Positions 3,388 through 62,107 of a stretch of DNA of 64,000 bases are shown piece after piece; positions within the stretch are counted from its first letter, which is position 1; every line of letters starts with the position of its first letter. Source of the stretch: a virus (taxonomy: Duplodnaviria; Heunggongvirae; Uroviricota; Caudoviricetes); IMG/VR virus record IMGVR_UViG_3300037454_000603, positions 15,646 to 79,645 of that record, one strand, 5' to 3'. A program made the position numbers and the translations under genes. The notes below the pieces were generated by a model. That model was not told the origin of the DNA, did no database searches, and was given only the letters and a program-made list of their open reading frames with translations.

Positions 3388-4190
3388 TTAGAATCCAAAA
3401 TCTGAATTATCAATCTCTAATTTATCTAATTCTTTTCTCATTCTCTTTAGAATATCAAGGCCTACCTTTTTCTTTTCTGTCTCTTCTAAATTAGAAGTTG
3501 CTTTAGCCTCTTCACTAAATTTAGCATATAGTTCTTTATCATATTCTTTAATATGTCCCGCAAGCCTATTAATTTCTTTTCTTATCTCATCAAGCGGCAC
3601 AGCAGCGTCAGCAGGACAAGAATAAAAGACAAAATGATTATGTTTGTGTTCAACAATATAGCCTTTATCAATTAATTCCTACTTAGCCTTTCTATATGTG
3701 CTTTCTGCAAGACCATAAGCCTACTAAAAATTTTTAGGAGATAAATTAAATTCCCAACCGTCTTCATTTTCTGCAAAATATAAGTATAACTTAAATCCAG
3801 ATGGAGTTAAATTCTTTGCCGCCTCTCTAATTTCATCAATTTCTATATACATAAACTTCATCCCCTTTTCCTTATATTTAGGTTTACATATTTTTCCAAA
3901 TAACTAATTTGGAATTCCTTTTGTTAAATTATAACCATTGTTATATGTATTGAACTTATCAATCCATAAAATTTCTTTATCATCTAATTCATCGACATTA
4001 CATATCTCTAAAATTTCAAAATTGAAATTTTTTATTCCATATTTTTTAAAATCTAAATACAAAGGATTAGTGTTTAATCCCTCGCTATTTCGATGCTCTC
4101 GCCATCTTCTCTTAATATCTATCGACTATCCAATATAAGATTTACCATTTATTTTGTTTGTTATTTTATAAATTCCTATCATACACTATC
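3388..4190 (-). CDS. GIY-YIG homing endonuclease (MIGIYKITNKINGKSYIG-TAG-S...RRWREH) fused to a C-terminal DnaD/replisome-organiser-like HTH domain. At least five in-frame TAG codons.
   Basis: GIY..YIG and R..EH motifs with TAG at the canonical Gln position; TAA stop at 3388-3390; ORF 3388-3600 is its C-terminus. Confidence 0.7.
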
Positions 4191-4268
4191 CCCTCATAAT
4201 TATTTATTAATTTTATTATAGCATTCATTAGCTCTTTTTATTGCATCAGAAAGTTCAGTCTCTATATC

Positions 4269-5038
4269 CTATTCTTTTACTTCTCGAATAACATAGTCTA
4301 TATAATATCGAACTTCAGTTAATCTAAAGCAAGGAATTTTTGCAAGCTTACTATTTACATAATAACTCTCTTCAAAATCAATTAAATCTAAAACTTTTAA
4401 AAACATTAAACTCTCTCTTATTTTTTTATCATTAGCCGTTTGTTTTGTTAAATTAAAAGCATCTCTAATAGTTTCAAATCTAATATCTTTATAATTTTGT
4501 CCAAGAGAGACACAAGTATCTCTATAACTGCAACACAATAAATAAAGCTTCATTTCTAGTTCACTTGCTTGATACTTTTCATTTAGAGTTTCTAATGTAG
4601 TTTCTGGAACAGGGGTCCACCGAGAAGGTCTACTTATCCAATAAACACCATTCTTTTCTTCTTTATTTCGCAAAGACCAAACTCGAAAAGCTTCTTTTTC
4701 CGCTTCTTTTCGTAAAATTGGTCTAGTAGGAGGATTTTCTCCTGTCGGGTCTAGTTGAGATATAAAATTATTATTTTCAATTTTTTGTTCATATTCCCAT
4801 AAAGGAACATGACTATATTGATTTTGTCCTTTAAAAGTGATTCTTCCAGTATATTCCAAATAATACAAATAGAACTTCACAGTCTTATCTGAAATACCTG
4901 TTGCCTAATAAATTTTAGTAAGGACTAAATCTTTCTATCTAAACATTCTGGTATTATCTGGATAATTTGCTAATCCTGCGATACAAACTAAATAGCTATA
5001 TAATTTCATAGAACTTTTAGCAATTTCAATTTCTGATG
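4269..5038 (-). CDS. Replication-initiator-like winged-helix protein (MKLYSYLVCIAGLANYPDN...). Two in-frame TAG codons. Lies next to the iteron array.
   Basis: ORF 4269-4880 continues upstream through two TAG codons to the ATG at 5036-5038; five 22-bp iterons lie directly upstream. Confidence 0.5.
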
Positions 5039-18264: not shown

Positions 18265-19065
18265 TTAAATTTTCTCCCACTCTTCATCAGAAATTTTATT
18301 TATTTCCGTTTTTTTATATGGTAAATTTTCAGCTTTACACCATTTACGAATTGCATTATCAGATACTCCATAGTTTTTCCCAATTTGAACGAAAGATAAC
18401 GTTCTAATTAGCTATTTTAATTCTTGCCTATCAGGACGATTTTTTACAATTCGGTGCTATTTTTTATAGCAATCAACACAATAAGTACTCGTATTTCCTA
18501 TCTACTTACCACAAATTATACAAGTATTATTTGTTTGTTTATTATTTATCTATTCATTACTGCTACAAGTATCTTTTTTAAACTTATCTTTGTTTACTAC
18601 TCCATTTTTACGAATAGGATAACTTATACCCTCTTGAATCCAAGTCTCTCCAATATTTATACTGCTTATAGTTCGCTAAGATACATTAAACTATTTACCA
18701 ATATCTTCTTGACTCAATGTTGTAGTTGATAAAAGAGTAATTATATCCTAAGCCTACTATTTAGTTAATTTTACTGGTAAAGAAGTATTGCCGCCATCAG
18801 TTAGATTATATCCATTTAATGGATTATGACTATCATAATATTTTATCCAGTACTTTTCCCTATTATTTAATTCTTCAAGGCTACATTCCTCTACAACTTC
18901 AAATAAAAAGTTATCAATTCCATATTTTCTCATTGCTCGGTATATAGGATAATCATCTGTCTAATAATGCCCTCTATGTGCTTTCCAGCGTCTGCAAATA
19001 TTTTGAGACTATCCTATGTATATCTTTCCATTTATCTAATTAGTAATTTTATAAATACCGATCAT
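18265..19065 (-). CDS. GIY-YIG homing endonuclease (MIGIYKITN-TAG-INGKIYIG-TAG-S) with a C-terminal HTH tail (...WCKAENLPYKKTEINKISDEEWEKI). Multiple in-frame TAG codons.
   Basis: Motifs read by hand; TAA stop at 18265-18267; promoter-like module at 18090-18140. Confidence 0.65.
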
Positions 19066-25195: not shown

Positions 25196-25270
25196 ACCTT
25201 GCGCCGCGGCACCATTGATGGACAAACAAAAGCAAGCCGCGCGAATTATATCGGCGGCCGGCACGGTATA
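25196..25270 (-). repeat. GC-rich hairpin element (GCGCCGCGGCACCATTGATGG ... GGCGGCCGGCACGGTATATA) immediately upstream of a promoter module
   Basis: Seen in the sequence; same arrangement as 10740, 15690, 20642, 48080 and 53622. Confidence 0.65.
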
Positions 25271-25442: not shown

Positions 25443-26573
25443 TTATTTCAACCCCAAAAATTTTACAAGTTCTTTTGCAGTTTTTCCTTCAATAGAAAGT
25501 TTATCATCGTAAGCTAAATAAGCCCAATTTGTATGCTCATTTAAGTTCTTTTTAACCCAATCAGAAAATTCTTTTCGACTCGCGGCGCAGTGTTCTTTTT
25601 TCCAATTTTCAACCATTTCTTTAACAGCTAAAGTCATACCGATAGCAGCTTTATACTGTAAGCTAACTTTATGAAAGAAGTCACGGTATTGACCAAAATA
25701 AGCTAAAAACTCATCTTGCTCATTTTCAAGTATCATTGCCAGTGCTCTTTCTACTGTTAGAACGCCGTTATTCGCCATTCTATGGAGTTCTACATACTTC
25801 TCAGTTTTGATTTTAACTCTATCGAAATCTGCATCACAAACTACTATTCCTTCATTATTGTCGCCCATATTTTTAACAAATTCACAATAATCTCTTTTGC
25901 TATTAAAATAATAATGTTTGGGGGTCTCAAAACCGCAAGCATCTCCAATCATTTCAACCGCTTCAGGATAAAGTTCTAAAAGAGTTCTCATATCTCTAAT
26001 TGAAAGCAGATAGAGAGCAGGCTCAGGGTAATCTAAAACGATACGCGTAACAGGGCTTACAAGCTCAAAAGTCCAACACTTTATCTTATTATAGTTCTTA
26101 AAATTAGATAGAGGACAAACTGCTTCAAAAAGTTCTCCATAGGTTTTGTAAGGGCTTGCTGGATTATTAATTTCGGCTTTGAAGGCGTCAATACACCCAT
26201 TGGTCGACAAATGCCATTTACCACGAGCATACCAAGCAGACATTATAGAGCCATCTATTTTTTCACTTGCCCACGCGGTAGGCCATTCAATCTGCGCTGC
26301 GTGAGACTCTCCAAGATTAAAAAATCTTTCAAAGGCGAAACGAACAACTTTAAAATTCTGAGTTGAATCGAGAATAAGCCCTCTTGCTTCTCGGCATATT
26401 TTTTCATTAAAATCTGAGTTAATTTGGTTATACTTAAATAATACAAATCCATCATCCCAGCTTATTTTTAAGTTATATGGAGCACCAGAAAGGAGAGCCT
26501 CCCAATCTTTATGCTCATGTATGAATTTAACTATTTCTAACATCTTCTTCTCTCCATTTCCATTTATATCCAT
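25443..26573 (-). CDS. T4 Rnl1-like RNA ligase (motif I EKIDGS; FFNLGE; motif IV EGIVVC; motif V KIKTEKY)
   Basis: Motif order and spacing match RNA ligase 1 by inspection. Confidence 0.7.
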   Translation of the reverse strand: MDINGNGEKKMLEIVKFIHEHKDWEALLSGAPYNLKISWDDGFVLFKYNQINSDFNEKICREARGLILDSTQNFKVVRFAFERFFNLGESHAAQIEWPTAWASEKIDGSIMSAWYARGKWHLSTNGCIDAFKAEINNPASPYKTYGELFEAVCPLSNFKNYNKIKCWTFELVSPVTRIVLDYPEPALYLLSIRDMRTLLELYPEAVEMIGDACGFETPKHYYFNSKRDYCEFVKNMGDNNEGIVVCDADFDRVKIKTEKYVELHRMANNGVLTVERALAMILENEQDEFLAYFGQYRDFFHKVSLQYKAAIGMTLAVKEMVENWKKEHCAASRKEFSDWVKKNLNEHTNWAYLAYDDKLSIEGKTAKELVKFLGLK

Positions 26574-26688
26574 ACGCAGTTTTTCTATCTCCTTTACATA
26601 CTAAACGAATAGAATTTGCTGCACTTCTTGTTTTTCCTATTGCTAAAGCAGCTTCCTCACAAGCTTCATATGTAGCTATAAAATTTCC

Positions 26689-27410
26689 CTATAAGTCATA
26701 TTGATTAACAGGCCTTGCTCCTGTTTTTCGATATGGCTTTGGAGCTGGTTCTCCATGTTTTACAAATAAATATTTTAACGCTCTGCCGCCAGTAGATAGA
26801 GCAGTACTTACCATACTTTCTGTCATATTTAACGCATGAGCAGCAGCACGACCGGACTCATAAGTATTCAAAAAATTACCTTTTAAGTCATAACAGTCAA
26901 TGCAAATTTTTCTTGAAGATTGCATAGCTTTTGTTGCTTTTTCTTTTTGCCTTTGCTTTGCTTCTTCTGACCACCCTTTGAAACCAGATAGAGCATAATA
27001 CACTGTATTACGTCTACATTCATATTCTTTGGCAATTTCATCAACACTAAAGCCTTTGTCCCACAGATTCTTAAATTCCTAATAGTTATACTTCTGCGCA
27101 CCTTCGCCACCAATTGTCGAGTTATACCCTTCTTGGTAAGAGTTATATTCTGCTATCCAATAACATTCTCTATCAGAAAGCGCAGAATTATCTTCTACGT
27201 ATTCAAGCTCTTTTGCTTGAAAATGATCAATACCATATTTTCTTATTGCTTTATAAAAATGTGTATCATGACGGGAATCTCCCTCAGAAGAAAAAGCTCT
27301 ACGTTTATGTTCATGCCATCTATGTTCTATTGTAGAAATTGTCTATCCAATATAAACCTTATCGTTTATATCATTAGTAATTATATAAATGTATCCCATT
27401 TATATCGCCT
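26689..27410 (-). CDS. GIY-YIG homing endonuclease (MGYIYIITNDINDKVYIG-TAG-T...HRWHEH) with a C-terminal NUMOD-like DNA-binding tail. Two in-frame TAG codons.
   Basis: Hand translation; ORF 26689-27003 is its C-terminus. Confidence 0.65.
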
Positions 27411-34693: not shown

Positions 34694-36157
34694 TCAAGCC
34701 CAAGTAAACTCGGGCTTAGTTAAAATTTCTTCCATTGCTTCAAAAGCACTTTTATTAATCAAAGTCTGCATGAATTTGAAAGTTCCAGTACTTTGACCAG
34801 AAACATAGCCAACATTTTCACTACATCTTGAAAGAGTATTGTTGCTTCTAGATTCAACATTCCAGTAGATAATCTTGCTCATAGGAACTCCAATATATTC
34901 AAACTTTTTCTTCCACTTTTCAGCTATTGATTCGCAATAATCCTGTCCTGCCCAACTATTAACTTCCATATCTGAAATTATTACAATTGCTTTGGGAGCA
35001 TCATGACTCATTCGAGCAACTTCATAAACCTTAGCAAAAACTGCATCAAGGTTAGTTGACCAACCCCAGTTAGCACTCATGACCTGTCTTACGCACTGAG
35101 TTAAAGACCAATTATCAGAAATCTTATGGAAAGAAGGACTAGAGGAAAAATTACAAAAAATATTATGATATTCTCCATGATTTCTCTGGGCAAAATAAAT
35201 TGCAAGACCAACAGCAGTAGAAATAGGTCGATAACCATCGTATTCCATGGAACCACTGGTATCAGCTACTACGAGTATATTATCACTTTCGCCCACATAG
35301 TTAGGAAGTGCCTTCCACTGTTCCTCAGCTATAGTGTCAAGCTCTCTAACACTCTTGGAGCAAAGAGGCTTGACAATATCATAAGGATAAAGAGTTGCCG
35401 CATTAACCTTGGCTTCTCCCTTTACAAGAGCATCCTTATACTTCTGGAATCTCTCAGGAACTCTCTTGTTAAAAGTAGAAATATATCTACTCATAGCTAC
35501 GGAAGGAACGCCCTCAAAGTTAATTTCATTCCACTGGCCAGCGCTCATCTTCTTTTCGACCACGTCTATATACTTTCTCATTGTGGAAAGAGTCTTACGA
35601 TAAGTTCTAGGAGTTACACTAAACTTTTTGCAAAACTTATTTGCCAACTTTCTGGTTTCGTCAGATGAAGTATTAATAGATGGCATCCATTTAGCAAGCA
35701 AAGTAATGGGTTTATTCTCTCTCATATTCTTCACATCAGTTCGAAATTGAGTCTCGACAAACTGCCACATTTCAGTTTCAACTGATGTTCCTTCAAAAAC
35801 AAAAAGGTCGTCCCATCTACCTGTATCAACAATCTTCTGGAAATTCTTCTTTATCTTCTCGGAATTAAATTTGGCAAGCTCTTTGAGAAGGAGTCGCCCA
35901 ATTCGTCTCTCTCCAAGACCACCATCTCTTACATTTCTAGCATAAAGGACGAGGTTATCCGCAAGTTCTTCATTTTCACGTCTCGCCGCCTTCCAAGTCT
36001 GAATTATATCTATATCTTCTCTATTCCTCATACCACCAATGTTAGCGAAAAGATCAAGCAAATCGCCGCCATCAGTGGTATTAAAACAACGTCCGCCATT
36101 CTCAGTATAAGTCTTAATTGCTTCATTCTTAAACATATCTGCAAAACTCATTTCCAT
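34694..36157 (-). CDS. rsr: Ro60/Rsr orthologue. N-terminal TROVE domain plus C-terminal vWA domain (MIDAS motif DTSGSM).
   Basis: Domain order and the MIDAS motif read by eye; an adjacent Y-RNA-like element lies at 36190-36292. Confidence 0.6.
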   Translation of the reverse strand: MEMSFADMFKNEAIKTYTENGGRCFNTTDGGDLLDLFANIGGMRNREDIDIIQTWKAARRENEELADNLVLYARNVRDGGLGERRIGRLLLKELAKFNSEKIKKNFQKIVDTGRWDDLFVFEGTSVETEMWQFVETQFRTDVKNMRENKPITLLAKWMPSINTSSDETRKLANKFCKKFSVTPRTYRKTLSTMRKYIDVVEKKMSAGQWNEINFEGVPSVAMSRYISTFNKRVPERFQKYKDALVKGEAKVNAATLYPYDIVKPLCSKSVRELDTIAEEQWKALPNYVGESDNILVVADTSGSMEYDGYRPISTAVGLAIYFAQRNHGEYHNIFCNFSSSPSFHKISDNWSLTQCVRQVMSANWGWSTNLDAVFAKVYEVARMSHDAPKAIVIISDMEVNSWAGQDYCESIAEKWKKKFEYIGVPMSKIIYWNVESRSNNTLSRCSENVGYVSGQSTGTFKFMQTLINKSAFEAMEEILTKPEFTWA

Positions 36158-37238: not shown

Positions 37239-37315
37239 TGGTTTCTCGGCTCCGAATTGAACGGAGGTTTCAAGCTTTTAGAGAGCTGAATGCTGACCAC
37301 TTACACTACCGAGAA
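37239..37315 (-). tRNA. Amber suppressor tRNA, anticodon CUA (loop CTCTAAA), U1-A72 Gln-like acceptor, CCA encoded
   Basis: Acceptor TTCTCGG/CCGAGAA; D-stem GTGT/GCAT; anticodon stem CAGCT/AGCTT; T-arm CTCCG-TTCAATT-CGGAG. Confidence 0.8.
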
Positions 37316-37321
37316 ATATTA

Positions 37322-37990
37322 TTAAATTTTATCCCATTCTTCATTGGAATAAGAATTAATGTCTTTTTTTCTTCTTGGAAGTCCATATTTATCACACCAT
37401 TTTCTTACTGCATTATCGGATACATTACAATTTTTTCCTATTTCACTAAAAGAAAATTGACGTATCCTTTGCTTAAGTTCTTCTCGTGTAAAAGGACATT
37501 TCCATTTCTTCTCTTTCTTTTCCTCTTTTTCTTCTTTTTTTCTTATGGGATAAGATTGATTCTTTTGCTTCCACATTTTCCCATTGTTTATCTAGGATAT
37601 TAAACAATGACTAACGTTATATTTCTTTGCAATTTCTTCCCCAGTAAGAGAAGCGTTTTTTAAATCATATACAATTTCATTTGCAATATTCCAGTTAATT
37701 TTGTACTACATATTTTCAATAGTACTCATATTATATCCATTCGGGGTCATTGTATTATATTTATTTATATAATATTTTTCTTTATCATTAAGTTCTGTCA
37801 AGGCGCATTCTTCTATTACCTCGAAAGAGAAGTTCTCTTTTCCATACTCTCGCATTGCCTAATATAATAAAGTATTCTTTGTATTCATTTTATTCTAATG
37901 TTCTCTCCATCTTCTTCTAATATCATTGGACTATCCAATATAAGACATTCCATTAGATTTATTAGTAACTTTATAAATTCCTATCATTTA
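37322..37990 (-). CDS. GIY-YIG homing endonuclease (MIGIYKVTNKSNGMSYIG-TAG-SNDIRRRWREH-TAG) with the shared C-terminal HTH tail. Four in-frame TAG codons.
   Basis: Hand translation; ORF 37322-37576 is its C-terminus. Confidence 0.7.
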
Positions 37991-38889: not shown

Positions 38890-39008
38890 TCGAGATGACA
38901 GGACTTGAACCTGCAGCTTCTTGCTCCTGGCGCCAATGGCTGGAGTTGCACCAGCTAATACTCTTCACTGACCAAAGCAAGCCGTCTACCAAATTGACTT
39001 ACATCTCG
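38890..39008 (-). tRNA. Aberrant ~119-nt tRNA-like gene. Acceptor (CGAGATG/CATCTCG) and T-arm are good, but there is a ~45-nt extra segment between the D-arm and T-arm. Anticodon unresolved.
   Basis: CTTGC...GCAAG brackets a 50-nt insert. Confidence 0.4.
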
Positions 39009-39018
39009 TTATATGGAC

Positions 39019-39780
39019 TTAAATTAAAGCCCATTCTTCATCTGTATAGTTATTTATATCTGTCTTTCTTCTAGGTAGTTTTTCAAAATCACACCATTTG
39101 CGAATAGTATTATCAGAAACATTATATATTTTTCCTATTTGAGTAAAAGGTTTTGTACGAATTAATTGTTTTAACTCTTCCCTTGAAGGTCGCTCAACTG
39201 TTCTAAAAAATAACTAATTACATTTTACACATCTAGTAGATTTATAATCTATTTCTGCTCCACAATCTATACAATATTTTTGTTCTCTTTTATCTCCATG
39301 TCTTTTTTTAGATATTGCTTGAATGGGATATTCTCTATCATGTTTCCAATATCGTCCAGTATTAATACCTTGTATCATTTCTACAGATATATTCCACTTT
39401 TCTGCTATTTCTCTATGAAACATATCTGTCTTTTCTAAATCATTTATTATACCAATAATTTTTTCCTTATTAATTTCATTTCCAGAGCTATCTCCGCCAA
39501 TAGTCAAATTATATCCCTCAAAAAATGAATTATACTATTTAATATAGCTTTTTTCTTTTTCATTCAACTCAGAAACTAAACATTCTTCAAGAACTTCAAA
39601 AGTAAAATTTTCAAAACCGTATTTTCTTATTGCTCTGTATAAAGGTTTATCATAATTATGATCATTAGGATTAAATGCAGTTGATTTATGACCTCTCCAT
39701 CTTTTCTTTATATCTTTGCTCTATCCAATATAAACTTTTCCGTTAATCTAGTTTGTAATCTTATAAATTCCTATCATATT
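39019..39780 (-). CDS. GIY-YIG homing endonuclease (MIGIYKITN-TAG-INGKVYIG-TAG-SKDIKKRWRGH) with a zinc ribbon and the shared HTH tail. In-frame TAG codons.
   Basis: Hand translation; ORF 39214-39507 is an internal piece. Confidence 0.65.
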
Positions 39781-39890
39781 TACCACTCTCCATACATCAT
39801 TAACCACTCATTTAATATAAAATTAAGGGAAGAGTGAGTGGTTACTCTTATCAATAGGTTTGCAATTCCTATCTATCCCCTAATATCAAT

Positions 39891-40260: not shown

Positions 40261-41040
40261 TCAAATTTTTTTCCAATCTTCTTCAGTATAATGCTCTATA
40301 TCTGCTTTTCTATAAGGAAGATTTTCATTTTTACACCATTTGCGAATTGCATTATCTGTAACTCCAAACATTTCTCCAATTTTAGTAAAAGGCAAAGTTT
40401 TAATTAATTGTTTTAACTCTTCTCGATTAGGTCGATTTACTTTACGATTTTTTAATCTATTACATTTATCACATCTAGTAGAACCAAACAATATTTTAGT
40501 ACCACAATCAATACAATACGTATCTGGATTTTTAATTTTCTTAAAATATTCTTCTTTTTCTCTTAATGGATACTGTAAAATATCTTTCACCCAACTCTTA
40601 CCAGTATTAATATTAGATATTAAAGACTAATCGACTTGATACTTCTGTGCTAAATCATTCTATGAAATTTCAGTATAAAGTAAAGCCTTGATTATTTCAT
40701 CGACCTATACCTCATTTAATTTCAAAGGATGTGGAGTATTGCCTCCGTCATCCTAATTATAACCATAGTCATTATCATTGGAATGATAATAACTAATCCA
40801 ATATTTTTCTCTATCATTCAATTCTTCAATAAAACAACTTTCAATTATCTCAAATCGAAAATTCTCTATTCCATATTTTCTTATTGCCCTATATAGTGGA
40901 TAATTATAGCCCTTATTGTTTGGATTATGGGCAGCACATTTATGATTTTGCCATCGTTTTTTAATATTTCTACTCTACCCAATATAAATTTTTCCATTAA
41001 TTAAATTAGTAATTTTATAAATTCCTATTTCTACATTCAT
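40261..41040 (-). CDS. GIY-YIG homing endonuclease (MNVEIGIYKITNLINGKIYIG-TAG-S) with a zinc ribbon and the HTH tail. In-frame TAG codons.
   Basis: ORF 40261-40590 is its C-terminus; terminator hairpin at 41090-41112. Confidence 0.65.
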
Positions 41041-41147
41041 ATAATCGTCTCCTACAAATTATTTCCTACAACAATATAATATACAAAAGGAAGAGGGTAG
41101 GAGCCTCTTATCATAGAGTGATCAAATTCTACTATCCTTTTGTATTT

Positions 41148-41216
41148 ATGTCACAAGATAGAATCGAACTATCTTAAAATGCTTATGAAGCATTTTTCTT
41201 ATCCATAAGTTGTGAC
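41148..41216 (-). tRNA. tRNA with anticodon CAU (Met, or lysidine-modified Ile) and a reduced D-loop
   Basis: Acceptor GTCACAA/TTGTGAC; anticodon stem AATGC/GCATT; loop TTCATAA; T-arm GATAG-TTCGATT-CTATC. Confidence 0.55.
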
Positions 41217-41380
41217 ATACCGCCTTATTTCATACTACGGAGACGGTGCCGCGAAATATTTACTTTTCAAATATTTAAAGTCAATCAGTTTAGCCTTCGC
41301 TGATAGCCAAGCTTAGACCGCTTTCTTTTGCGACGCCCTAGCTACTCGTCGTTTGATTCGTGCACAATCAAGAACCGCAT

Positions 41381-41650
41381 TTTTAACTTCTAAGATAAGG
41401 ACTCCTGCCGCGGCACCGTCCGACTTATGTTTTTAACTTTGAGGATAAGGACTAGCACGTAGCTTATTGTCCGACCTTTAATCTAGAACTTTTTAACTTT
41501 AAGGGATAAGGGCTCTTCTAGTTCGCCCGACCTCTTCTAATTAAGTGCGCTTTTAACTTACGATAAGGTGCGCTATCCGACGGAAACCTTTTGTTAACTT
41601 TTATAGAGGATAAGGGACTAACTCGGCTCTAGATCTTCTGTCCCGACCTA
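41381..41650 (+). repeat. Tandem array of five ~50-60-bp diverged repeats. Each is TTTTAACTT, a few nt, RGGATAAGG, then a hairpin with a co-varying stem (GGAC/GTCC, GGGC/GCCC, GGGAC/GTCCC) and a variable loop, then GACC.
   Basis: Seen in the sequence; compensatory stem changes point to a structural RNA or DNA element. Confidence 0.55.
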
Positions 41651-41666
41651 TTACAATAGGAGGTGA

Positions 41667-41774
41667 TACTCTTATGAAAAAGAGTTTTCAAGATACTTTT
41701 ACTTTTTTAAATTTTAAAATCTTTTCAAAAAATCTACTTATTTTAATATCTAAAATTGCTGTAAGTATCTTTTA
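41667..41774 (+). CDS. Plus-strand 35-aa hydrophobic peptide MKKSFQDTFTFLNFKIFSKNLLILISKIAVSIF. Has a strong RBS (AGGAGGTGA). Resembles type-I toxin or holin-like small membrane peptides.
   Basis: ORF directly downstream of the repeat array on the same strand. Confidence 0.4.
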
Positions 41775-41775
41775 G

Positions 41776-41857
41776 TGGGAGAGGAAGGACTCGAACCTTC
41801 GAAGACCGAAGCCACGTGGTCTACAGCCACGCGCAATTGCCGCTATGCGACTCTCCC
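41776..41857 (-). tRNA. tRNA-Tyr (GUA), type II
   Basis: Acceptor GGGAGAG/CTCTCCC; anticodon stem CGTGG/CCACG; loop CTGTAGA. Confidence 0.7.
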
Positions 41858-42141
41858 ATTATTTTATATATATTCTAACCAAGAATATAAATGTTATAAC
41901 CCCACTCCTAGGTTTTATTTTATACGCTCCTATCCCCAGAATAGGTGGCATACAATACCTAAGTCCAAAAGTACCATAGAATTACATCGCGCCGCGACCA
42001 CTATGATATTTCTACTTGTTATAACTTCCCAAGTTTATCTTTAATTAAACCCCTTTCTTTTTAAGGACAAGACACTATTTAAATACAATCAGTTCCCAAA
42101 ACAGATGTTATTTAATAGCTGTAAGTGTCTTTGATGAATGG

Positions 42142-42216
42142 TTTCAGCGGAAGGATTTGAACCTTCGGTGTCCTGTTTTAGAGACAGGTGCGTTAAACCC
42201 ACTTCGCCACGCTGAA
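42142..42216 (-). tRNA. Second amber suppressor tRNA, anticodon CUA (loop CTCTAAA), U1-A72. Its sequence differs from copy 1.
   Basis: Acceptor TTCAGCG/CGCTGAA; anticodon stem CCTGT/ACAGG; T-arm GAAGG-TTCAAAT-CCTTC. Confidence 0.8.
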
Positions 42217-42364
42217 ATATAATCAAGATAAAATATTTAAGTCATTTTCATTTTCTATATTAATTATAGCAAAAATTTTCTTAAAAATCAAATTTTTAAC
42301 TTTTAACTTTTATAGAAAAGAGGTAAGTGTTTTAAGTGTTATCGCTTCACTATGAATAAATTGG

Positions 42365-42456
42365 CGACATTGACTGGACTTGAACCAGCACACCGATATA
42401 ATCGGCTACTCAGAGGTTAGCAACCTCCTGCCTTACCAAGTTAGGCTTACAATACC
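42365..42456 (-). tRNA. tRNA-Ser (GCU), type II
   Basis: Anticodon stem GGAGG/CCTCT; loop TTGCTAA; variable arm CCGAT/ATCGG; discriminator G. Confidence 0.6.
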
Positions 42457-42460
42457 ATAA

Positions 42461-42534
42461 TAGACGTAGTGAGACTCGAACTCACGCTCCCCGACTTAAA
42501 AGGTCGGTGCTTTCACCAACTAAGCTACACGTCC
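42461..42534 (-). tRNA. tRNA-Lys (UUU)
   Basis: D-stem GCTT/AAGC; anticodon stem CCGAC/GTCGG; loop CTTTTAA. Confidence 0.7.
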
Positions 42535-42686
42535 ATATTTAAACCATTTGGCGGTCCGTCGCAATCCCGCAAAACTTACATGGAGTTACACAACCTTAAT
42601 AACGGAGTTGGTTCTCCGAGTGTTCCATTTACTAAGCCCTTATTGTCTTGGCAACTTTACTAATCTTTGTTCACAAATGGTTTAAG

Positions 42687-42777
42687 TGCTCCCTCCGAGA
42701 CTCGAACTCGGACACCTTTCGATACCTGTTCTTGAGACAGGCGCGTCTGCCATTTCGCCAAGGGAGCATTTGATTGG
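42687..42777 (-). tRNA. tRNA-Leu (CAA), type II
   Basis: Acceptor GCTCCCT/AGGGAGC; loop CTCAAGA; long variable arm. Confidence 0.7.
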
Positions 42778-45807: not shown

Positions 45808-46500
45808 TCAGTGTGCGCTTGTATCAAATTCATCTACATATTTCCAATAATATCCTTTATATAACTATCCGTCATTAAAATGATGTTTTAGAATTGTACC
45901 TTTTAATCCTAAAGAAGAGGCCGCTTGTCTATTTGAAGAAAAAGTATTTATTAAATTCCAATCTTTATCATATTGTAATACTGTTTTACCTTTTCCTCCG
46001 CTAGTATGCGGTTCAATTCTATTTACAGGTCTATTATCATCTGAAAATCTCCACTAATAATTTCCTGCACTGTAACATCCGCCTCTTGCTGCTCTCTAAA
46101 TATTAGCATTTTCAATACCTGTTTTTGCCGAAGCTTCTCCACAAGATTTAAATTCTGCAACAAAATTTCCCTCTAAATTATACTATTTTATAGGTCTAGC
46201 ATTAAAAGAAGTACCATTTCCTTCTCCTTTTCCTTCCGTCATGTTATATCCATTTTTATAACTATCATAATATGATATCCAATATGCTTCTCTTAATATT
46301 AAATCTTCTTCTGGGCACTCTTCAATAACTTCAATATTAAAATTATCAATGCCATATTTACGCATAGCAAAATATAGATGAGTATTCTTATTCTAATAAG
46401 AAGATTTATGTTCTTTCCAACGGTGTTCTATATTATATCTAGTCATTCCGATATAAAGTTTGTTATTTATTATATTTGATATCTTATAAATATATCCCAT
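45808..46500 (-). CDS. GIY-YIG homing endonuclease (MGYIYKISNIINNKLYIG...HRWKEH) with C-terminal NUMOD-like repeats. Five in-frame TAG codons. Ends with TGA.
   Basis: Hand translation; ORF 46183-46365 is an internal piece. Confidence 0.65.
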
Positions 46501-46528
46501 TTTCAAAACTCAACTCCTTTATTACAAT

Positions 46529-48141: not shown

Positions 48142-48390
48142 TTAAAGAACCTCTTCAAAACCAAAAACACAATATCCTTCTTTTAATCCATATCCATTTA
48201 AAACATAATTAATTTGATAAAGTTTTTCATTAATTGGATATGTAACAGGAGTTAAATCTTCATAACAAACAAAACTAATATAGTCACCTTTTTGATATCC
48301 TCTGTCATTTTCTCGAACTTCAAATCTTTTACTACCTTCCATGATTGCTGCCGCAAAAGGTCGTTGAATTTTTATTGTATGTGTCATTTT
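48142..48390 (-). CDS. ASCH/DUF3850-like small protein (MTHTIKIQRPFAAAIMEGSKRFEVRENDRGYQKGD)
   Basis: Start assumed at the internal ATG within ORF 48142-48621. Confidence 0.45.
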   Translation of the reverse strand, partial: KMTHTIKIQRPFAAAIMEGSKRFEVRENDRGYQKGDYISFVCYEDLTPVTYPINEKLYQINYVLNGYGLKEGYCVFGFEEVL

Positions 48391-48703
48391 ATCCCACCCT
48401 TTGATTATATCCATATTCATCACTATGGTAGTATTTTGTCCAATATTTTTCTTTTTCTGTCTATTCTTCTTTTGGACAAACCTCAACAATTTCCCAAGTA
48501 AAATTTTCAAGTCCTTCGTTCCACATAGCATCATAAAGCTATCCTTTAATTCTTTCAATATTGCATCCACGTTTAGCATGTGTACGCCAACGAGATAGAA
48601 AAGAAGCAGATGTTTTTCCAATATAAACTTTTTGATTCTTAATATTGGTTATTTTATAAATACCACCGTTATCTTTGTCTCCACTTAAAACTCTTTTAAA
48701 CAT
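48366..48703 (-). CDS. Short GIY-YIG nuclease (GGIYKITNIKNQKVYIGKTS...RWRTHAKRGC). Two in-frame TAG codons. Apparently in frame with the upstream TAG-rich coiled-coil ORF.
   Basis: Hand translation; TAA stop overlapping the ASCH-like gene. Confidence 0.5.
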
Positions 48704-49447
48704 TTCTTCTATTCTAGTTTTATAATAAACATCATATATAAGCTTATAAATAACTTCCTATTTAGAAAAAGTTAAAGCTAAAGTTTTAAGTTTCTCAATA
48801 TCTGCCTTCTCTATATCATTAATCTAAACTCGATAAAAATCGGCTTGCTATTTTCTTTCTTCATCAAGCTTAAAGCGAGCAATTATCTCTTTCTATTTAC
48901 TCTCATATTCCTGAATCTCTTTATTTAGAGTTTCCCTTTGTTTGGATATTTGCTCGCTAAATATGAAAAAATCTTTATCAAGCTCCTCTTTTTTATCTTT
49001 ATAATTAGCCTTTAAATTTTCTAGTTCAGTCTAAAATTTTTTAGTTTCTTCTGAAATTTGCATAGTCTACTCTTGACTTCTACGCTGTGCCGCCGCCCTG
49101 TCCATTTCTTCCACCTATTGACGGCGGCGTAAATAATCTTGAGTTAATTCTTCAGTTTTTTGCTAAAAATTCTATTTTTCTTTGTTATAATTTCGGTTAA
49201 GTTGCTCAAGAGAACGACGAAGTTCTTCCTGTTTAATAAGATGTTCTTGGGTTAATTCCTTATCAAAAATATCTTTCTTTTCTTTTAGACCATTAAGAAC
49301 TTTACTTTGAGATTTTTTAAATTCCTTCTTTTCAACATCTCTTCCTCGTGCAACTAGACAAATATACATTGCCGCGGCACCAAGAAGAAAGCAAAGTATT
49401 ACAAGTAAAATTGTTACTACCATTCGGTTATTCCTCCTTCTTTTCAC
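48704..49447 (-). CDS. TM-anchored coiled-coil protein (MVVTILLVILCFLLGAAAMYI...) with at least eight in-frame TAG codons
   Basis: ORF 49172-49447 continues through TAG codons; the boundary with the downstream GIY-YIG gene is unresolved. Confidence 0.35.
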
Positions 49448-50795: not shown

Positions 50796-52457
50796 TTAAA
50801 TCTTGACTTCTGTTTTTTCTTTAAGTATCTGTCTCACATATTCCATTGTAAGACTACCACAAATCTTTCCAAAGCCTTCTATAGCTTGAACAGTATCAGG
50901 CTCTTCTTTAAGGCAATCTTCATAAACAAGACGATTAATATTCTTTGCAATAGTTCCCATGTGAGTCTCGTTCCAATCCCAAGGAATTATTTGATCTTCA
51001 GCAAGTTTTTCCAGAATTTTCTCAATACGACGACGAGTTACTACTGTTGCGGCATAGTTACGTAAAGCTTCCTTTTTCTTAAGCTCTTCTGGGTCGACAG
51101 GTTTCTTATGGTCTTTATGAACTTCACTAAACTTCTCAGAAACAAGCTTTAAATATATTGGACGTCTACTATCATTATCTTTAAGACGCTCCTGTGATTT
51201 TACTACTACACCTTCGCCGCAAGGCTGGGCATTAAGATTTGTTTGCCCAATAAAAGAATAAACATGGTCCCAACCTCTAAATGGACCAGTATAAAATATA
51301 GGTGCCATATAGATAGTTTCCATAACCTTCATTGTTGACTTAGCAAGACCATTAAAAATAGCAAGCACATCTTCAAAAGGTAACCAACTTTCTTCTACAG
51401 TATCCCATATATCAAAAAGATAAAATTTTTTATAAAAAACTTCATCATATGAAATTGTATGTTTACAATTATGCACAATAAAATTATTAGCGATAAAATT
51501 GGCTATATTTTCGTTGCCACTCATACAAATATCATAACAATCTTCTTCACCGACATCCTCGATAGAAATAATATAGTCAAACTCATAATCAAATTTAGGC
51601 TGATTCTTAAATTTAGTATGACTATTTCCGTGACAATCTTGACAAAGTACTTGCCAATTATCTTCAGTATTATGAAAAGGATTCTCATCTTTATGATGAA
51701 GATTTAGTCCATTTGTGGCTCCGCATATCTCACATTTTCCAATTCTATCCTTGTATTCTTTCTGTTTTCTAAATATCTCTCTCGTACCAATTCCATAAGT
51801 TCTTTGATGAGTATTCCTTGTAATAAAATCTGTAATAGCAACACAATCATACTCAGAAAGTTTTCCTAATTCTACCCACCCCTTAGGAGTTAAAAAAGGA
51901 TGATTAGCAGTAGCTTTAATTGAATAACCTTTATGAGTTGTCAGCTTATAAACCTTTTTCTTTCCAGTATAAACAATTTCTTGTATTTTATTGGGCTGAA
52001 TTATATCAGTTTCCAAATCAAGAGAATAAATACTTGGATAGCCATTCCTCTCCCACCAGCTCTTAGTTCTTCCCTCTTCTGGAGTATGAGCATATTCATA
52101 CATTTCTTTCAGCGTCATTTCTTTTTTTCCTTTTCCTGCGCTGACTTTTTTAATAACTGTATCTCCAGAAAGACAAAGCCATTCGCCAAACAAAATATAA
52201 CGACCGTAATTAGTTGCAATAGCTACGGCCTGTTTAGGTAAACGTTGAGTCCACTCCCAAAAACCATTAAGAGTATTCATTTCATTTAACGGTCGGCGAC
52301 GAGAGAAAGCAACAACGCTATCTGTTTCGGAATCATAGGAAAATGCACTTGAGGATCCGTCAACCTTCTCACTTATTGTAATCTCTTCTCCTATTTTAAA
52401 ACAATTGATATATTTTTCTTTTAAACGTTCTATATCTATATACTTTTTTTGTTTCAT
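50796..52457 (-). CDS. Rnl2-like RNA ligase (motif I EKVDGSS; FGEW; FDIWD; EGVVVK). Interrupted by an intein (residues ~95-330) that carries an HNH domain.
   Basis: Intein boundaries FGEWL/CLSGDTV and FIVHN/CKHT; HNH CEICG...HHKDENPFHN...LCQDCH. Confidence 0.65.
   Translation of the reverse strand: MKQKKYIDIERLKEKYINCFKIGEEITISEKVDGSSSAFSYDSETDSVVAFSRRRPLNEMNTLNGFWEWTQRLPKQAVAIATNYGRYILFGEWLCLSGDTVIKKVSAGKGKKEMTLKEMYEYAHTPEEGRTKSWWERNGYPSIYSLDLETDIIQPNKIQEIVYTGKKKVYKLTTHKGYSIKATANHPFLTPKGWVELGKLSEYDCVAITDFITRNTHQRTYGIGTREIFRKQKEYKDRIGKCEICGATNGLNLHHKDENPFHNTEDNWQVLCQDCHGNSHTKFKNQPKFDYEFDYIISIEDVGEEDCYDICMSGNENIANFIANNFIVHNCKHTISYDEVFYKKFYLFDIWDTVEESWLPFEDVLAIFNGLAKSTMKVMETIYMAPIFYTGPFRGWDHVYSFIGQTNLNAQPCGEGVVVKSQERLKDNDSRRPIYLKLVSEKFSEVHKDHKKPVDPEELKKKEALRNYAATVVTRRRIEKILEKLAEDQIIPWDWNETHMGTIAKNINRLVYEDCLKEEPDTVQAIEGFGKICGSLTMEYVRQILKEKTEVKI
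51468..52175 (-). other. Intein (Hint domain plus HNH homing endonuclease) inside the Rnl2-like ligase
   Basis: Block A CLSGDT at the N-terminus, block G VHN-C at the C-terminus. Confidence 0.6.
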
Positions 52458-56582: not shown

Positions 56583-59500
56583 AAAAATATTAATCGTTCT
56601 AACCGTTCCAGCTATGTAATAAGAAATAGAAATAAGACTTATTGTTTTGTGTTGATATTGTATAATTAAGTTCCAAAGCTCCATAAGTTAAATGACTTTC
56701 AAAAATAATATCTCCAATTTGGAGGGAACCTAAATTTATATTACTATCTATAACCTTAATACCTTCTCTTAAAGTACCGCCGTCTGAAAATTGACCAATT
56801 CTAAATGAAAAATATCTAGTATCATTATCATTAGCTAAAAAGTTTTCTATTCTTTCAAAAAGTTCCTAATCGGCAGAACTTACCGATGGTTTTCCTCTCA
56901 TTAGCCATCTAGCGTATTTTTTAAAACTAATTTCGAAATCTTGCTAAGTCGCAATGCCGCTAGGTAATGAATCAAAAAAGTAAACTTTTAACAAATTACC
57001 ACTTTCACCATAATAAAAATTGCCAGCATTTCCAGAGGAACCTATTAAATTTCCACTAAATTGACCAGGAGTTAATGCAAGACCTTGAAATTCTTCATTT
57101 ACTTCCGTCTATGAAAAAGCAATATAATTCCAACAAGCGGATTGAGTGGCATTACCTATAACACAATAATTCGTTACAACGAAGGGAATTGTATCGCATG
57201 GGCTCGAAGCTAACTCACCTAAATAGAAACCTTTAACTGGTTTTTTAGTTGCGGTTGTACTAGGATCGAGAGGAGGGGCAGGAGGTGGATTAGAACCGTG
57301 GCTAACAAACTAATCAATATTTAAATTAGATTGTGCCATATCTGTTGATTGCATAGTTAAAATCCAAGTATCAACTATTCTTTCTCCTTCTCCCGCGACT
57401 TCATGAGCTACATCATAAACTCTTAAAGTCATAGTTAATCCCGTAAAGCTTTCATTATAAGTTGCATCGAGTGATACTGGTACAACTCTTAACATGCCAT
57501 ATGGATTCATTCCACTAGGAGTTACACTTCCTGCTCCAGAGAAGTTAGTTACATAAAACTCATTTTCTACATCATAGGCATCTATTCTATCTTCATAAAG
57601 TAAAGGATTGATTGAAATATTATTTGTATCAGCAAAATAATATAAATAAGTTCTATTAAGATTTCTATCATAAAGAATAACACCTGGATAATATTCTGAA
57701 TAATAGTAATTATGAGAATAGTTATTCATTCTGAAGTAAGGAACAATACATAGGTTACTCTCTGAATACTGCGAGAATAAATATCTTAGCTAACCCTATG
57801 CATATTGTAGCGCCGAGAGACCAGTTCTGCTACTATTATCAAAATCATCAAACTTAACATAATTTCTTAAATCGTCAACTGGAACAGGAACAACTTCACA
57901 GTGAACGTCTTTATAGAAAGGTTCCTAAGATAAAACCGCATACATAGCCCATAAATACTGTGTATTTTGCCAAAGTTGAATTAATTCATTCAAAATTGAA
58001 TCAAGTAAGGGCTTTAATTTATTGCCAAAAATAAACTCACAAATTCCAGTTAAAACTTCACTAATAACCCAGAAGTTTCTATTTAAATCTTCAACCTCGA
58101 CATATCTTAGATATCGCGGCATTAGTAAACGAATCCAATTGCCTTTTTCGTTTGTAAAATCTAAATTATCACTATATTCAATAACAGCTCTAATTGCATC
58201 TGGGTCTCGTGCCTGTTGATAAGATGTCCCACTTTTATTTTCCCAAGGAATAACCCAAGTCGTATCATCTGAGCATTCCCATCTAAAAGAATTACCTGCA
58301 TCTGCATTCTTTAAATCTCCAACTTTAACACTGCCATATAAAGTAGCATTATCCCCAAAACTTCCGTCAAAATCGCTTGCAAGTTGACAAATGCTTTCAT
58401 TCCAGAACTAATTGCCAGATTCACCTAAATAGTCTGTTAAAGTTGAATTAAAATCTATTGAAGCATCTATATGTCCGAAAACAGTATCGTTTCCAATTGC
58501 GCTGCCTAAGAAAGGCCCTTCGGGAGAAAGAATAATTCTATCAAGCATACTTGTCCATATATTATTAATAGAGGCAGACAAACTTGATAAAGTAGAAGAA
58601 TTAAAATCATTATAATTTAACTAGCTATTTTTATCATATAAATCCTAAAATAACTAATCAAAAGTTGTATAAGCCATTTAGTTTATCACCTCTTTTATTA
58701 TGGATTAATATAATCTAAAATTCCACTTGAATCAAAAATATAACCTTTCATTGGAAGAGCCTAGCCAAGACTTCCATCGTTAACATAAGTAGGAGTATTA
58801 TAATTGTCCCAAGTTGGATCATTATCCCATTCTCTAAACATACTTATCTAATCATCAGAAACCTTAAATTTATTATTATCACCATCGTATTCAAAGAAAA
58901 GCTATAAAACGTGAGTATGTCTACCACCAACATAAGTTGCTTTATTGCCTTGTATACTAGAACTGTAGCCATCAAATAAATTCCAAATTCCTGAAACTTT
59001 ATAGTAATGCTATAAAACATAGGTAACTGTATGACCAACTCCTCCGCCGGCAATATAATCATTAATAGCATCTATTACTTCTTGCTAAGTCGGATTATCT
59101 GGTAGACCTAATTCATCAGCTGTTACATACCAATATCCAGTGGCACTTCCACCAGTTACTACTATTTGTTCAACAGTATTAGTTTCTTTGTTAAAATGAT
59201 ATAAGACCTGTGCCGTAGTTTGAGCATTAACTCTATAAATTGTTTCATTAGGTTTACTTGTAGCATTAAGCTACGGAAGTCTCCATTTGTCTGAAGAACC
59301 CTAAGCAGGATTTTCTCTTAAAAGACTAGCGGGGAAATTTCCCACGAAACCTTCAGCTTTATTAATAGGAATAACAGTATCTATAAAGCCCACTGTGACT
59401 CCATTCTCATCATTAATTGGATACGAAAATTTATATCCATCAATATCAATTTCTGGTAGGTCTGCACTATCTAAATATTCCATAGGAACATATCTAACAT

Positions 59501-61780
59501 AATGACATAAAATATTCTAAGTCCAATACCCCTAATAACCTTGCGCCGCCCCCTCATAACCTCCAAGCCAAGAAGAAACACCAATTGAAGTTAAAATATA
59601 ATTAATTTTATTTTTATCAAGATAATCTTCGCTATCCACTTGTTCAAATGCATATTGAAGATATCTCTAACTCATATCTGCACTTAAACCTTTTAGACCA
59701 CAAACGTTACTAAGATTATTTCTTTTATTAAATTTAACTTCGCTTTTATCATTTATTTTAAAGAAAGATAACTTCCAGTCATCATTAACTTTTTCAAGCT
59801 TTTCTGACATAAAAACGGCTTCCTAGGTCTAGTCAGTTGGGCTAAGCGGATTCTAAGAATCATGATTATTAAAATATCCTTGAATACTATTAAGTCCAGA
59901 AGTAGTTCCCGCGGCACCAATAGTCAAATTACATTTATATCCAGTTCGTTTTCCAGAACTGTCTAAAACTTCTCTTACAGGACCATTTATATTAATAGGA
60001 GCTTGCATTGTAACTGACTAACCTACAAGACTTTCTATATTTGTTCCTTTAGGAAAATATTCACCAATTTTTAACAAAGTTCCCTAATTAGCAATTGATA
60101 ATCCTTTAGTATCATACTCAACCTAACCGCCAACCTCATAAGAAGAATAATCATAATCTGTCACTAATTCTCCTTTATAACAATTATCGCCAGAATTCCT
60201 TGCTGTAAACTATACTGGTAGTCTATGTTTAACTTCTTCTTCAAGAGAGGTTCTAAATATAACTTCACTAGTATTATTAATAACTGTAGCTTGATCTGAT
60301 TCAACCACTCCAACAAGTGACTTAGTTCCAAAGATTAATCTTTCAGCGGCATCATAGAAATTAAAAGATATATCTGCGTTTAAAAAGTCGCCGTCTCTCA
60401 CGCATCTCAAAACAGGTTTAACTTCTAATTCTGTTTCATATTTATAATTGTTTTGAGTAGATTCAAGTATCATATCTCTTGTTTCTAAAAGCCCTCTAGA
60501 ATTATAGTATAAATAAAGTCCTGAATAGGGGAAAAAGTATTTAGTATGTTCGTTATTAATGCCATACAAATATCTTCCAAAAAATCTACCAGCAGCGCGT
60601 GCCTAGCGGGCTGGTGCCACTTCATTCATTGGTACAGTTACGTCAATACCAAAAGTTAAAGGCGCTTTAGTGGCATAGAAAGTACCTCCACCTTCTAAAT
60701 CCTAAAGACCATAATAGGAACTAAGAGGTTTAAAAGTTTCAACATTTCTAGCTCTATCATAAAAATATAAGAAAGGATAAGATTCATAATAATAATAATT
60801 ATGTTCATAATTCTAATACCTAATACAAGGAAGCACACATAAATCATACTTTGAATATTTTTGCTTTAAAAACTAAATACTTTTTTTAATCTTTTGAAAG
60901 TTATGATTATTATTTTCTGGCTTTTCAAGAAAAGGCGGATATTCTTCATCAATATCCCATCCATTATCAAAGTTATCATATTTCTTATGTGGCTAAAACT
61001 CATTATTGGGAATATAAAGAACTTCACAATGTACACCTTCAATCCTCTACTGTTCCGCCGCAAGCAGTCCCGCGGCAACCCAAAGATATAACATATTTTC
61101 CCAAAGTTCACCAAGTTCTGTAATCAATCCTTCTATAATATCTTTCAATCCTTCTGGACCAAGCAAAAACTAGCATGCGCCAGAGATTACACTACTAATA
61201 ACCCAAAAGTTTCTATTTAAATCTTCAACTTCAACTCTACGAGTATTCATTGGCATTATTAATCGTATTGCGTTTAAAGCATCACTCTAACTCTTTGGAG
61301 AAGTAAACTAAAGTTGTGTGCCGTTTTGTATTACAGCTAAGCACTCATCGTAGCGACAAGTATTATAGTCATTATTACTTAAGTTTTTCCAAGGACGAAC
61401 AAAGTTTTCTGTGTTCTAAAAAGATAGTCCCGCGTCCCCATTTCGTAAATCATATATTGTAAATATATTATTAAAATTTCCATTAGCAAATAAAGTTTCA
61501 TTTTTATCAATTAACGCTTGAATACTTTCATTCCAAAAAGTATCTCGCTCTTGACCTGGCTCGGGATCAGGTAAATGAATAATATAATCATACAAGTCTC
61601 CTAAATCAGCTTTTTGCTGGATTCGACCAAATAGAGTTTGTATATTTGTAATGTTCTCTTTATGTAGCAATCCTTCCTAATTTTTATATGCCGCCAGCCT
61701 ATCTTTCCAATAGTTTATCTTGTCTGTATTGGATAAAAGCTTAGATAAATCCTCAATATTGGGATTATAATTAATCGCCA
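56583..61780 (-). CDS. One or more very large structural ORFs (tail-fibre or receptor-binding-like) dense with in-frame TAG codons. Internal boundaries unresolved.
   Basis: Continuous minus-strand coding frame across TAG codons; track ORFs 57310-57729, 60210-60569 and 61416-61670 are fragments; no promoter modules inside. Confidence 0.4.
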
Positions 61781-62107
61781 TTAACCTTCACCACCACTAT
61801 CCTCTTCTTTATTAATTTGAAATCTATTCCAAATATCCTTCAAAGAATCGAATCCATTCATGGCAATAAAAGCAGTTATAAAACCAACAATTATACCAAT
61901 TCCAACTGCTTTTAAAATTAAGCCGTAGCATATAAAAGAAGCTATCATGCATACTAAAACTCCTACAATTAATGTTAAAGCTTTTGTTGGAAATGATTTT
62001 GGTAATACTTGCTTTAAAACTTGAACAATAATTGATGTTATCGCGGCAAGAACACCTAAATCAGTTAAAGTCGCACCAGTTGTTAAACCTAAAATCTGTT
62101 CTAACAT
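61781..62107 (-). CDS. Holin-like small membrane protein (three TM segments)
   Basis: Hydrophobic segments; position in the lysis/structural block. Confidence 0.4.
   Translation of the reverse strand: MLEQILGLTTGATLTDLGVLAAITSIIVQVLKQVLPKSFPTKALTLIVGVLVCMIASFICYGLILKAVGIGIIVGFITAFIAMNGFDSLKDIWNRFQINKEEDSGGEG

Follow-up and report, generated by a model that had tools for sequence, protein, structure and literature searches.

The 64,000-nucleotide (nt) stretch of phage DNA analysed here (the window; positions 15,646 to 79,645 of IMG/VR record IMGVR_UViG_3300037454_000603) carries, between two transfer RNA (tRNA) genes, a tandem array of five structured repeat units at 41380-41648. We propose this array as a candidate new RNA family, whose existence, structure, conservation and novelty are well supported. 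Each unit combines two nested, co-varying helices with an invariant single-stranded box, and homologous arrays of three to five units are present in four other contigs (L012, L208, L022 and L124), giving 21 units over the window and its relatives. In Rfam 15, only tRNAs reach the gathering score, and nothing relevant appears at E-values up to 10 over 40600-42200 or, for L124, at E-values up to 1 over 3900-4700. An earlier note on this DNA had described five tandem units with a common box, compensatory stems and freely differing loops, and had considered an undescribed structured RNA module; all of these points have held up, but its placement of the array on the plus strand, opposite to the neighbouring genes, is not supported.

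The array stands out from its surroundings both in sequence and in composition. The box pattern TTTTAACTT-N2-8-GATAAGG has four exact matches in the 64 kb, all inside the array, against a shuffle expectation of 0.00, and the fifth unit carries the variant TTGTTAACTT...GAGGATAAGG; when up to three mismatches are allowed, matches elsewhere in the window are at chance level. The window as a whole is AT-rich, phage-like DNA with a GC content of about 20-30%, whereas 41250-41650 has a tRNA-like GC content of 41-44%, compared with 19-30% around it. The units are spaced by 50, 60, 60 and 41 base pairs (bp), and because their lengths differ, Tandem Repeats Finder reports no array at the locus. In the order of transcription argued for below, and with scores from the covariance model R1, also described below, U5 (41591-41648; 42.0 bits) reads GGUC-GGGAC-loop(21)-GUCCC-UUAUCC-N7-AAGUUAAC. 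U4 (41550-41582; 34.4 bits) is the shortest at 33 nt, with a minimal stem and a C:G outer pair (CGUC-GG..CC-UUAUCG-U-AAGUUAAAAG), and U3 (41490-41532; 46.4 bits; GGUC-GGGC-loop(11)-GCCC-UUAUCC-N4-AAGUUAAAAA) is 100% identical in L012. U2 (41430-41476; 45.8 bits; GGUC-GGAC-loop(16)-GUCC-UUAUCC-UCA-AAGUUAAAAA) has its loop replaced by 5 nt in L012, and U1 (41380-41425; 42.4 bits), the last to be transcribed, has an A:U outer pair and a loop containing GGUGCCGCGGC. This 11-nt GC-rich motif (GGUGCCGCGGC on the sense strand) has eight copies on one strand of the window, where 0.04 would be expected (with the motif on the plus strand, at 2642, 6539, 20647, 25203, 28470, 41407, 49371 and 59908). The copy at 25203 lies just upstream of a promoter, and the one in the U1 loop has a complement at 41242-41253. 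The resulting 12-bp inverted repeat (41242-41253 with 41409-41420) was rejected as a feature, its pairing not being kept in L012. Recurrent GGUGCCGCGGC is the sole meaningful match of any unit loop elsewhere, and the idea of guide-like loops was likewise dropped.

On the minus strand, the consensus unit reads N'-G-U-C-[G-G-n...]-loop-[...n'-C-C]-U-U-A-Y-C-N followed, after 1-14 nt, by AAGUUAA(A/C)A, for a total length of 33-62 nt. The outer helix has 3 bp (N-G-U pairing with A-C-N') and a bulged U; the inner helix has 2-6 bp and nearly always opens with GG:CC; the C / UU internal loop is fixed, and the invariant box lies single-stranded beyond the helices. The compensatory stems claimed previously (GGAC/GTCC, GGGC/GCCC and GGGAC/GTCCC) are all present in the window, with U4 having GG/CC alone, plus an A:U pair in relatives, and L208 contributes a further stem type, GCA/UGC. 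Positions 3-5 of the inner stem co-vary between A:U, U:A, G:C and C:G, while the outer closing pair N':N is G:C in 10-11 units, A:U in four and C:G in two, and is never broken. For 17-18 units from five contigs, taken both as fixed-column extracts and as a whole-unit MAFFT alignment, pairing is possible in 86.7% of cells compared with 70% after shuffling, and the covariation score is 0.39-0.42 compared with 0.11; none of 500 shuffles reaches either value, and sliding the partners by 1-3 columns lowers the score to 0.18 or less. The invariant nucleotides are the unpaired ones, namely those of the C/UU loop, the bulge and the box. The hairpin loops, by contrast, vary in length between 4 and 30 nt, and entire loops are exchanged from one orthologue to another, those of U1 and U2 differing between the window and L012. 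By inspection, there is no consistent loop-tail pairing; covariation backs two nested helices and not a pseudoknot, and no long-range covariation was found in the element.

The relatives were recovered by several routes. A strict two-box pattern gave 14 matches in metagenome contigs, of which one, L012, is a true homologue. L012 is 79.5% identical to the window over 41216-42768 and has the same tRNA order; its array is 85% identical, whereas the adjacent spacer is only 36-43% identical. The IMG/VR contig L022 has four units, found with single-unit and looser patterns. The scan of bacterial genome contigs returned at least 120 matches and its counts are lower bounds; among the matches listed is L124 (153 kb; three units), which bears the label of a Clostridia metagenome-assembled genome (MAG). 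The covariance model R1, built from 17 units, scores these training units at 34-51 bits; in unrelated loci preselected for carrying the box (770 kb), its best score is 20 bits, and in 312 kb from related phages it finds no further copies. The array of L208 was not used for training and was detected by R1 only, as four units of 44.1, 36.7, 28.5 and 24.0 bits; this array, too, is flanked by tRNA-Tyr on one side and another tRNA on the other. L208 itself was reached through a DUF2828 protein that is 83% identical to the one in the window; this DUF2828 plus DUF7788 protein (34694-36157, minus strand) is found in thousands of related contigs, often beside a Band_7 gene. In contigs L001 and L002, whose RNaseH-like gene has 89% amino acid (aa) identity with that of the window, one unit occupies the syntenic position. 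Viral pattern scans, BLAST searches of INPHARED and an examination of contigs sharing neighbouring genes (homologues of the RNaseH-like, 154-aa and helicase proteins, and further DUF2828 homologues) produced no true members beyond L012, L022, L124 and L208, and 50,697 deposited phage genomes have no match to the array. The proteins common to the array-bearing phages are only about 40-60% identical.

Because each of the five arrays points the same way as the tRNAs and genes around it, and because strong extended -10 promoters, matching 10-11 of 12 positions, are found on that strand alone, the array RNA is most probably the minus-strand transcript, made together with the tRNAs and presenting the hairpin first and the AAGUUAA box second. 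In L124, such a promoter lies directly before the array, which forms the whole leader of tRNA-Leu(UAA). Consensus folding of the window with L012 gives -86.3 kcal/mol for the minus strand compared with -71.0 for the plus strand, and the z-scores of the single-sequence minimum free energy are -1.82 and -1.21, respectively. All 26 tRNAs that ARAGORN detects in the window, and nearly all open reading frames (ORFs), are also on the minus strand.

The array occupies a 558-nt gap between tRNA-Tyr(GUA) (41775-41857), which lies directly upstream in the same transcription unit, an arrangement shared with L012 and L208, and a tRNA(CAU) at 41149-41216, which abuts the 3' end of the element. The latter is recognised by the Rfam tRNA model (32.3 bits) and missed by ARAGORN; its D-loop has 4 nt, and L012 has two ordinary tRNA-Met genes in its place. 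A simple scan of the minus strand identified a sigma-70-like promoter with an extended -10 (TTGATT-17-TGnTATAAT) at 42263-42291 and, just after tRNA(CAU), a hairpin followed by a U run that resembles an intrinsic terminator (41091-41109). Taking these two as its limits, the transcription unit likely runs from the promoter through tRNA-CUA, a non-coding segment X, tRNA-Tyr, an AT-rich spacer with a long hairpin (41661-41774), the array and a Y domain to tRNA(CAU). The Y domain (41217-41379) is a structured 3' extension of 163 nt whose hairpins keep their pairing through double changes in L012; since it is absent from L208, L022 and L124, it is not part of the core module. Segment X, for its part, is a conserved non-coding sequence of about 170-280 nt beside the tRNAs (41858-42138 on the minus strand of the window, 1437-1711 in L012, about 1740-1915 in L208) that begins with GGGAAGUUAUAAC, finishes with GGGGUUAUAAC and has no match in Rfam; it may be another RNA outside the known families. 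Immediately after both tRNA-Tyr and tRNA-CUA there are near-identical 19-nt sequences (41754-41772 and 42114-42132), each of which opens a long AT-rich hairpin, and the tRNA-Tyr copy keeps its pairing via double changes in L012. These sequences may be a common 3'-trailer processing or termination element.

What could such an array do? The explanation that we consider best, with a probability of about 0.35, is that it constitutes a multivalent binding platform or decoy RNA, freed by tRNA processing, for a factor specific for single-stranded RNA. A minus-strand non-coding RNA would be made within the phage tRNA operon, and RNase P and the tRNA 3'-end enzymes would free the flanking tRNAs, leaving a spacer RNA with three to five modules. 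Because the unpaired nucleotides are fixed, while the stems co-vary and loops, spacing and copy number are free, the module would be a recognition site for a trans-acting factor, repeated for multivalent binding. The RNA would then serve as a platform or sponge, the most plausible target being a host endoribonuclease or an RNA-binding protein that is important in infection. The downstream partner varies, being Y plus tRNA(CAU), a tRNA or tRNA-Leu, with none in the available part of L022; since this neighbour changes between phages, a role in trans is favoured over service to one particular tRNA. A more specific version, in which the decoy hidden in the tRNA operon captures a host endoribonuclease such as a CptN/ToxN-type abortive-infection toxin or a tRNA-targeting nuclease, and thereby represents a new class of counter-defence, is in our view unlikely.

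Several observations weigh against the reading as a minus-strand platform or decoy. The window yielded no candidate for a partner protein. At least five contigs carry an array, but three of them belong to one lineage, such that the number of independent events is lower than 21. Folding of the repeats, which the earlier note had proposed as a check, shows no gain in stability of individual units over shuffled sequence (z from -1.3 to +1.1), so that the hairpins are weak unless stabilised by something, and support for the helices comes from covariation and not from thermodynamics. Finally, two features would fit the plus strand better. At stem ends, three marginal pairs that would be A:C when read from the minus strand are G:U in the plus-strand reading, and the internal loop in that reading, UAA/GAC, resembles the UAA/GAN RNA motif in sequence. 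The motif consists of 5'-UAA-3' opposite 5'-GAN-3' between flanking Watson-Crick pairs, and its sequence pattern occurs in 17 of the 18 units when these are read from the plus strand, which is without promoter support.

Known RNAs provide partial parallels for a platform or decoy. Like the arrays, the CsrB/RsmZ sponges present many short motifs on or near hairpins, variable in number and spacing, with which they titrate a protein. However, their motif is GGA in loops, whereas here GGA is not conserved, the loops are free, and the fixed nucleotides are at the helix base and in the 3' box. The tRNA cluster of phage T4 also encodes stable RNAs (species 1 and 2, or RNA C and D) with unexplained function, which are cut out together with the tRNAs. 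By description, these are likewise non-tRNA RNAs that are co-transcribed inside a phage tRNA cluster, but they are single and about 120-140 nt long, as opposed to arrays of a repeated module.

The arrays could alternatively work in cis, as elements of the tRNA operon that direct processing or set its timing, make the precursor more stable or help RNA polymerase to continue along a long untranslated operon; we regard this as improbable. It would account for the location, as four of the five contigs have the array between tRNAs or a short way upstream of them and, in L124, the last box ends 4 nt before tRNA-Leu(UAA). The A-rich box also resembles the 3' half of rrn boxA elements. On the other hand, no tRNA follows in the available sequence of L022, in which about 260 nt remain to the contig end, and most tRNA spacers of these phages do without the module, with R1 finding none elsewhere in the 312 kb. 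Moreover, known antitermination or processing signals are single-copy and not repeated three to five times in tandem.

Somewhat harder to sustain, and in our opinion rather doubtful, is the view that the units are blocks of one larger folded non-coding RNA with a scaffold or catalytic role. The array does run into the Y domain, with its compensatory changes between the window and L012, and the single unit of L001 and L002 is embedded in a GC-rich non-coding stretch of about 680 nt (plus strand, 8670-9346 in L001 and about 8790-9480 in L002) that has its own strong promoter, is syntenic, precedes a tRNA-Leu and has no Rfam match. But Y is missing from three of the arrays, long-range covariation was not found, the 12-bp pairing is unconserved, and a unit number of three to five, a spacing of 41-100 nt and freely varying loops are unlike a compact fold. 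GOLLD and ROOL are also structured non-coding RNAs beside phage tRNA genes; each has one large fold, in contrast to the modular and repetitive architecture here, and neither is matched in Rfam at E-values up to 10.

A phage-borne antitoxin mimic, "pseudo-ToxI", has reportedly been described in the PhiTE work, and the earlier note had likened the array to type III toxin-antitoxin repeats or such decoys. As a toxin-antitoxin locus the array can be dismissed: none of the nine neighbouring ORFs matches a toxin or defence protein, no ToxN/CptN/TenpN/AbiQ-like gene adjoins it, a GIY-YIG gene lies downstream, the arrays of L124 and L208 lead into tRNAs, and covariation supports nested helices, not pseudoknots. 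A different matter is whether the modules mimic a host type III antitoxin of the ToxI, CptI or TenpI kind, so as to neutralise its toxin when host transcription is shut off. Type III antitoxins consist of tandem units of 31-62 nt in 1.9-5.6 copies (PMC3401426, Table 2), about 2-6 copies, and the copy number (three to five) and unit size (33-62 nt) of the phage arrays fall in this range, although the lengths differ within one array. Type III units likewise combine a short GC stem with a tail that is A-rich and single-stranded. The repeats of tenpI can differ from one another while conserving the stem and A stretch (PMC12283969). In addition, the processed CptI of Eubacterium rectale opens with AAGUUUA after a cut between GA and AAG and contains GGUCGG (as deduced from a primer; PMC4627078), and in 13 of 18 phage units an A precedes AAGUUAA; the units also contain GGUCGG. 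The promoters and one MAG label further point to Clostridia-type hosts, in which cptIN is common. However, the sequence likeness is limited to AAGUU[U/A]A and GGUCGG, that is, 6 of 7 nt plus a hexamer with a different structural role. Characterised antitoxins are fixed-length pseudoknots that are highly specific for their own toxin (PMC4627078), whereas the present units are nested hairpins of uneven length within one array and are conserved across phages whose common proteins have diverged as far as described above. Type III repeats, which the toxin cuts to unit length at an A-rich site, also sit between their own promoter and a terminator ahead of the toxin gene, as opposed to being embedded in a tRNA operon, and no antitoxin family is matched in Rfam at E-values up to 10. 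Taken together, we consider mimicry of this kind decidedly unlikely.

The layout first proposed, in which a structured plus-strand RNA array controls a small hydrophobic peptide acting as a type I-like toxin or is expressed together with it, is very unlikely, and its peptide part is largely refuted. An AGGAGG does lie 8 nt before an ATG in the window, as the ribosome-binding site (RBS) of an ORF at 41674-41775 on the plus strand, which encodes 33 aa (MKKSFQDTFTFLNFKIFSKNLLILISKIAVSIF) and not the 35 aa reported; the UAA/GAC loop and the few plus-only G:U pairs also speak for this strand. Yet no ORF of at least 20 aa exists at the equivalent place in L012 or L208, where RBS and ATG do not align, and because ORF and RBS are absent from both of these close relatives, we treat them as spurious and reject a type I toxin-antitoxin locus. 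The peptide has no Pfam or PADLOC match, no plus-strand promoter is of comparable quality, and the ORF, which shares one base with tRNA-Tyr, falls in the stretch with the lowest conservation, on the reverse complement of the AT-rich spacer; F/I/L/K-rich ORFs arise by chance in AT-rich sequence.

We see only a slim chance that the array is a remnant or derivative of transfer-messenger RNA (tmRNA), retaining pseudoknot 1 and the A-rich pre-resume stretch and acting in or against trans-translation. In L001 and L002, tRNA-CUA is directly followed by a canonical tmRNA, which the window lacks; the tmRNA of these relatives shares with the units, on the tRNA-sense strand, the succession GGUCGG...CCUUAU...A-rich UUAAA and has a unit-like stretch before the resume codon (GGUCGGCAACCUUAUAGCCAACUUAAACUUAAAC followed by GCA), and the Y domain has CAAACGACGAG-UAG inside a hairpin. 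An actual tmRNA requires a tRNA-like domain (an acceptor stem with a 3' T-arm), a tag frame and another pairing topology. ARAGORN and Rfam both detect the tmRNA of L001 and L002, but in the window neither finds one, the array has no tRNA-like domain, and no tmRNA covariance model matches at E-values up to 10; no frame is conserved with L012, owing to a 28-nt indel, the topology is nested, and the search pattern behind the match yields about one chance match per 10-20 kb. Least probable of all is a role at the DNA level (replication iterons, pac sites of the terminase or binding sites for other proteins), for although three to five direct repeats with an invariant 7-10-bp box adjoin a very AT-rich stretch, a double-stranded DNA site does not explain compensatory changes in two helices, the raised GC resembles that of neighbouring RNA genes, and the spacing is out of helical phase.

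Other identities were considered and rejected. The earlier note was right to exclude clustered regularly interspaced short palindromic repeats (CRISPR): such arrays, like the solitary repeat units of phages, have near-identical repeats of fixed length with unique spacers of similar length between them, whereas here the period is 41-61 nt and a variable hairpin splits the conserved parts, and no CRISPR direct-repeat or tracrRNA model matches in the array at E-values up to 10. The likeness to AAGUUAAAAU-AAGG..CCG in the tracrRNA of Cas9 was set aside as covariance models gave no match and there is no large cas-like ORF even with TAG read through. A group I intron tied to the GIY-YIG gene is contradicted by the lack of an intron match and by the endonuclease being absent in L012 and elsewhere in L022. 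The idea of a Ro-bound Y RNA was suggested by the DUF2828/DUF7788 protein, for which a Ro60-like architecture (TROVE plus vWA) was considered; the protein does not match solved Ro60 structures in sequence, YrlA has no match in the array, and pairing of the array with tRNA(CAU) was discarded because that duplex energy is the weakest among all 27 tRNAs.

The wider surroundings are those of a phage that reads TAG as sense. The next gene downstream of the array (40261-41040, minus strand) encodes a GIY-YIG homing endonuclease (Pfam, 35.8 bits; PADLOC HEase) with five in-frame TAGs, one of them within the YIG*S motif; two large, late-looking ORFs (56590-61781, minus strand) hold 12 and 28 TAGs, and the window has two tRNAs with anticodon CUA (37239-37315 and 42139-42216). 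At least eight GIY-YIG homing-endonuclease-like genes occur in the 64 kb, many between tRNA genes and all on the minus strand (3388-4197, 18265-19065, 26527-27399, 37322-37987, 39019-39807, 40261-41040, 45808-46506 and 48389-49447). Within the tRNA region, also on the minus strand, a GC-rich gap (about 45%) of 150 nt between tRNA-Lys and tRNA-Leu(CAA) (42536-42685) has no Rfam match, and a 119-nt tRNA recognised by Rfam at 38890-39008, unreported by ARAGORN, implies an insertion of about 45 nt. In L124, the halves of tRNA-Leu(UAA) (3990-4290, minus strand) are about 215 nt apart, and the break falls precisely between U34 and A35, where group I introns of tRNA-Leu classically sit; Rfam gives no intron match there. 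RNA repair genes are also present: an intein that contains an HNH domain splits an RNA ligase gene (50796-52457, minus strand), another ligase, resembling T4 Rnl1, is encoded at 25443-26756, and contigs linked via common proteins (L179, L181 and L209) have RtcB or Thg1 genes.

Phage tRNA clusters are usually read as supplies that serve codon usage or counter nucleases, and their other content is largely unexplored. The module described here is backed by covariation and comes with a defined consensus, a working covariance model and five natural variants, in phages that recode TAG and devote much to RNA repair, the window itself encoding two RNA ligases. If the decoy reading is true, it would represent an RNA-only form of counter-defence that is released via the tRNA processing of the host, and it would reveal the host factor that is bound. 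If instead the array acts in cis, it would be a new maturation signal for long tRNA operons.

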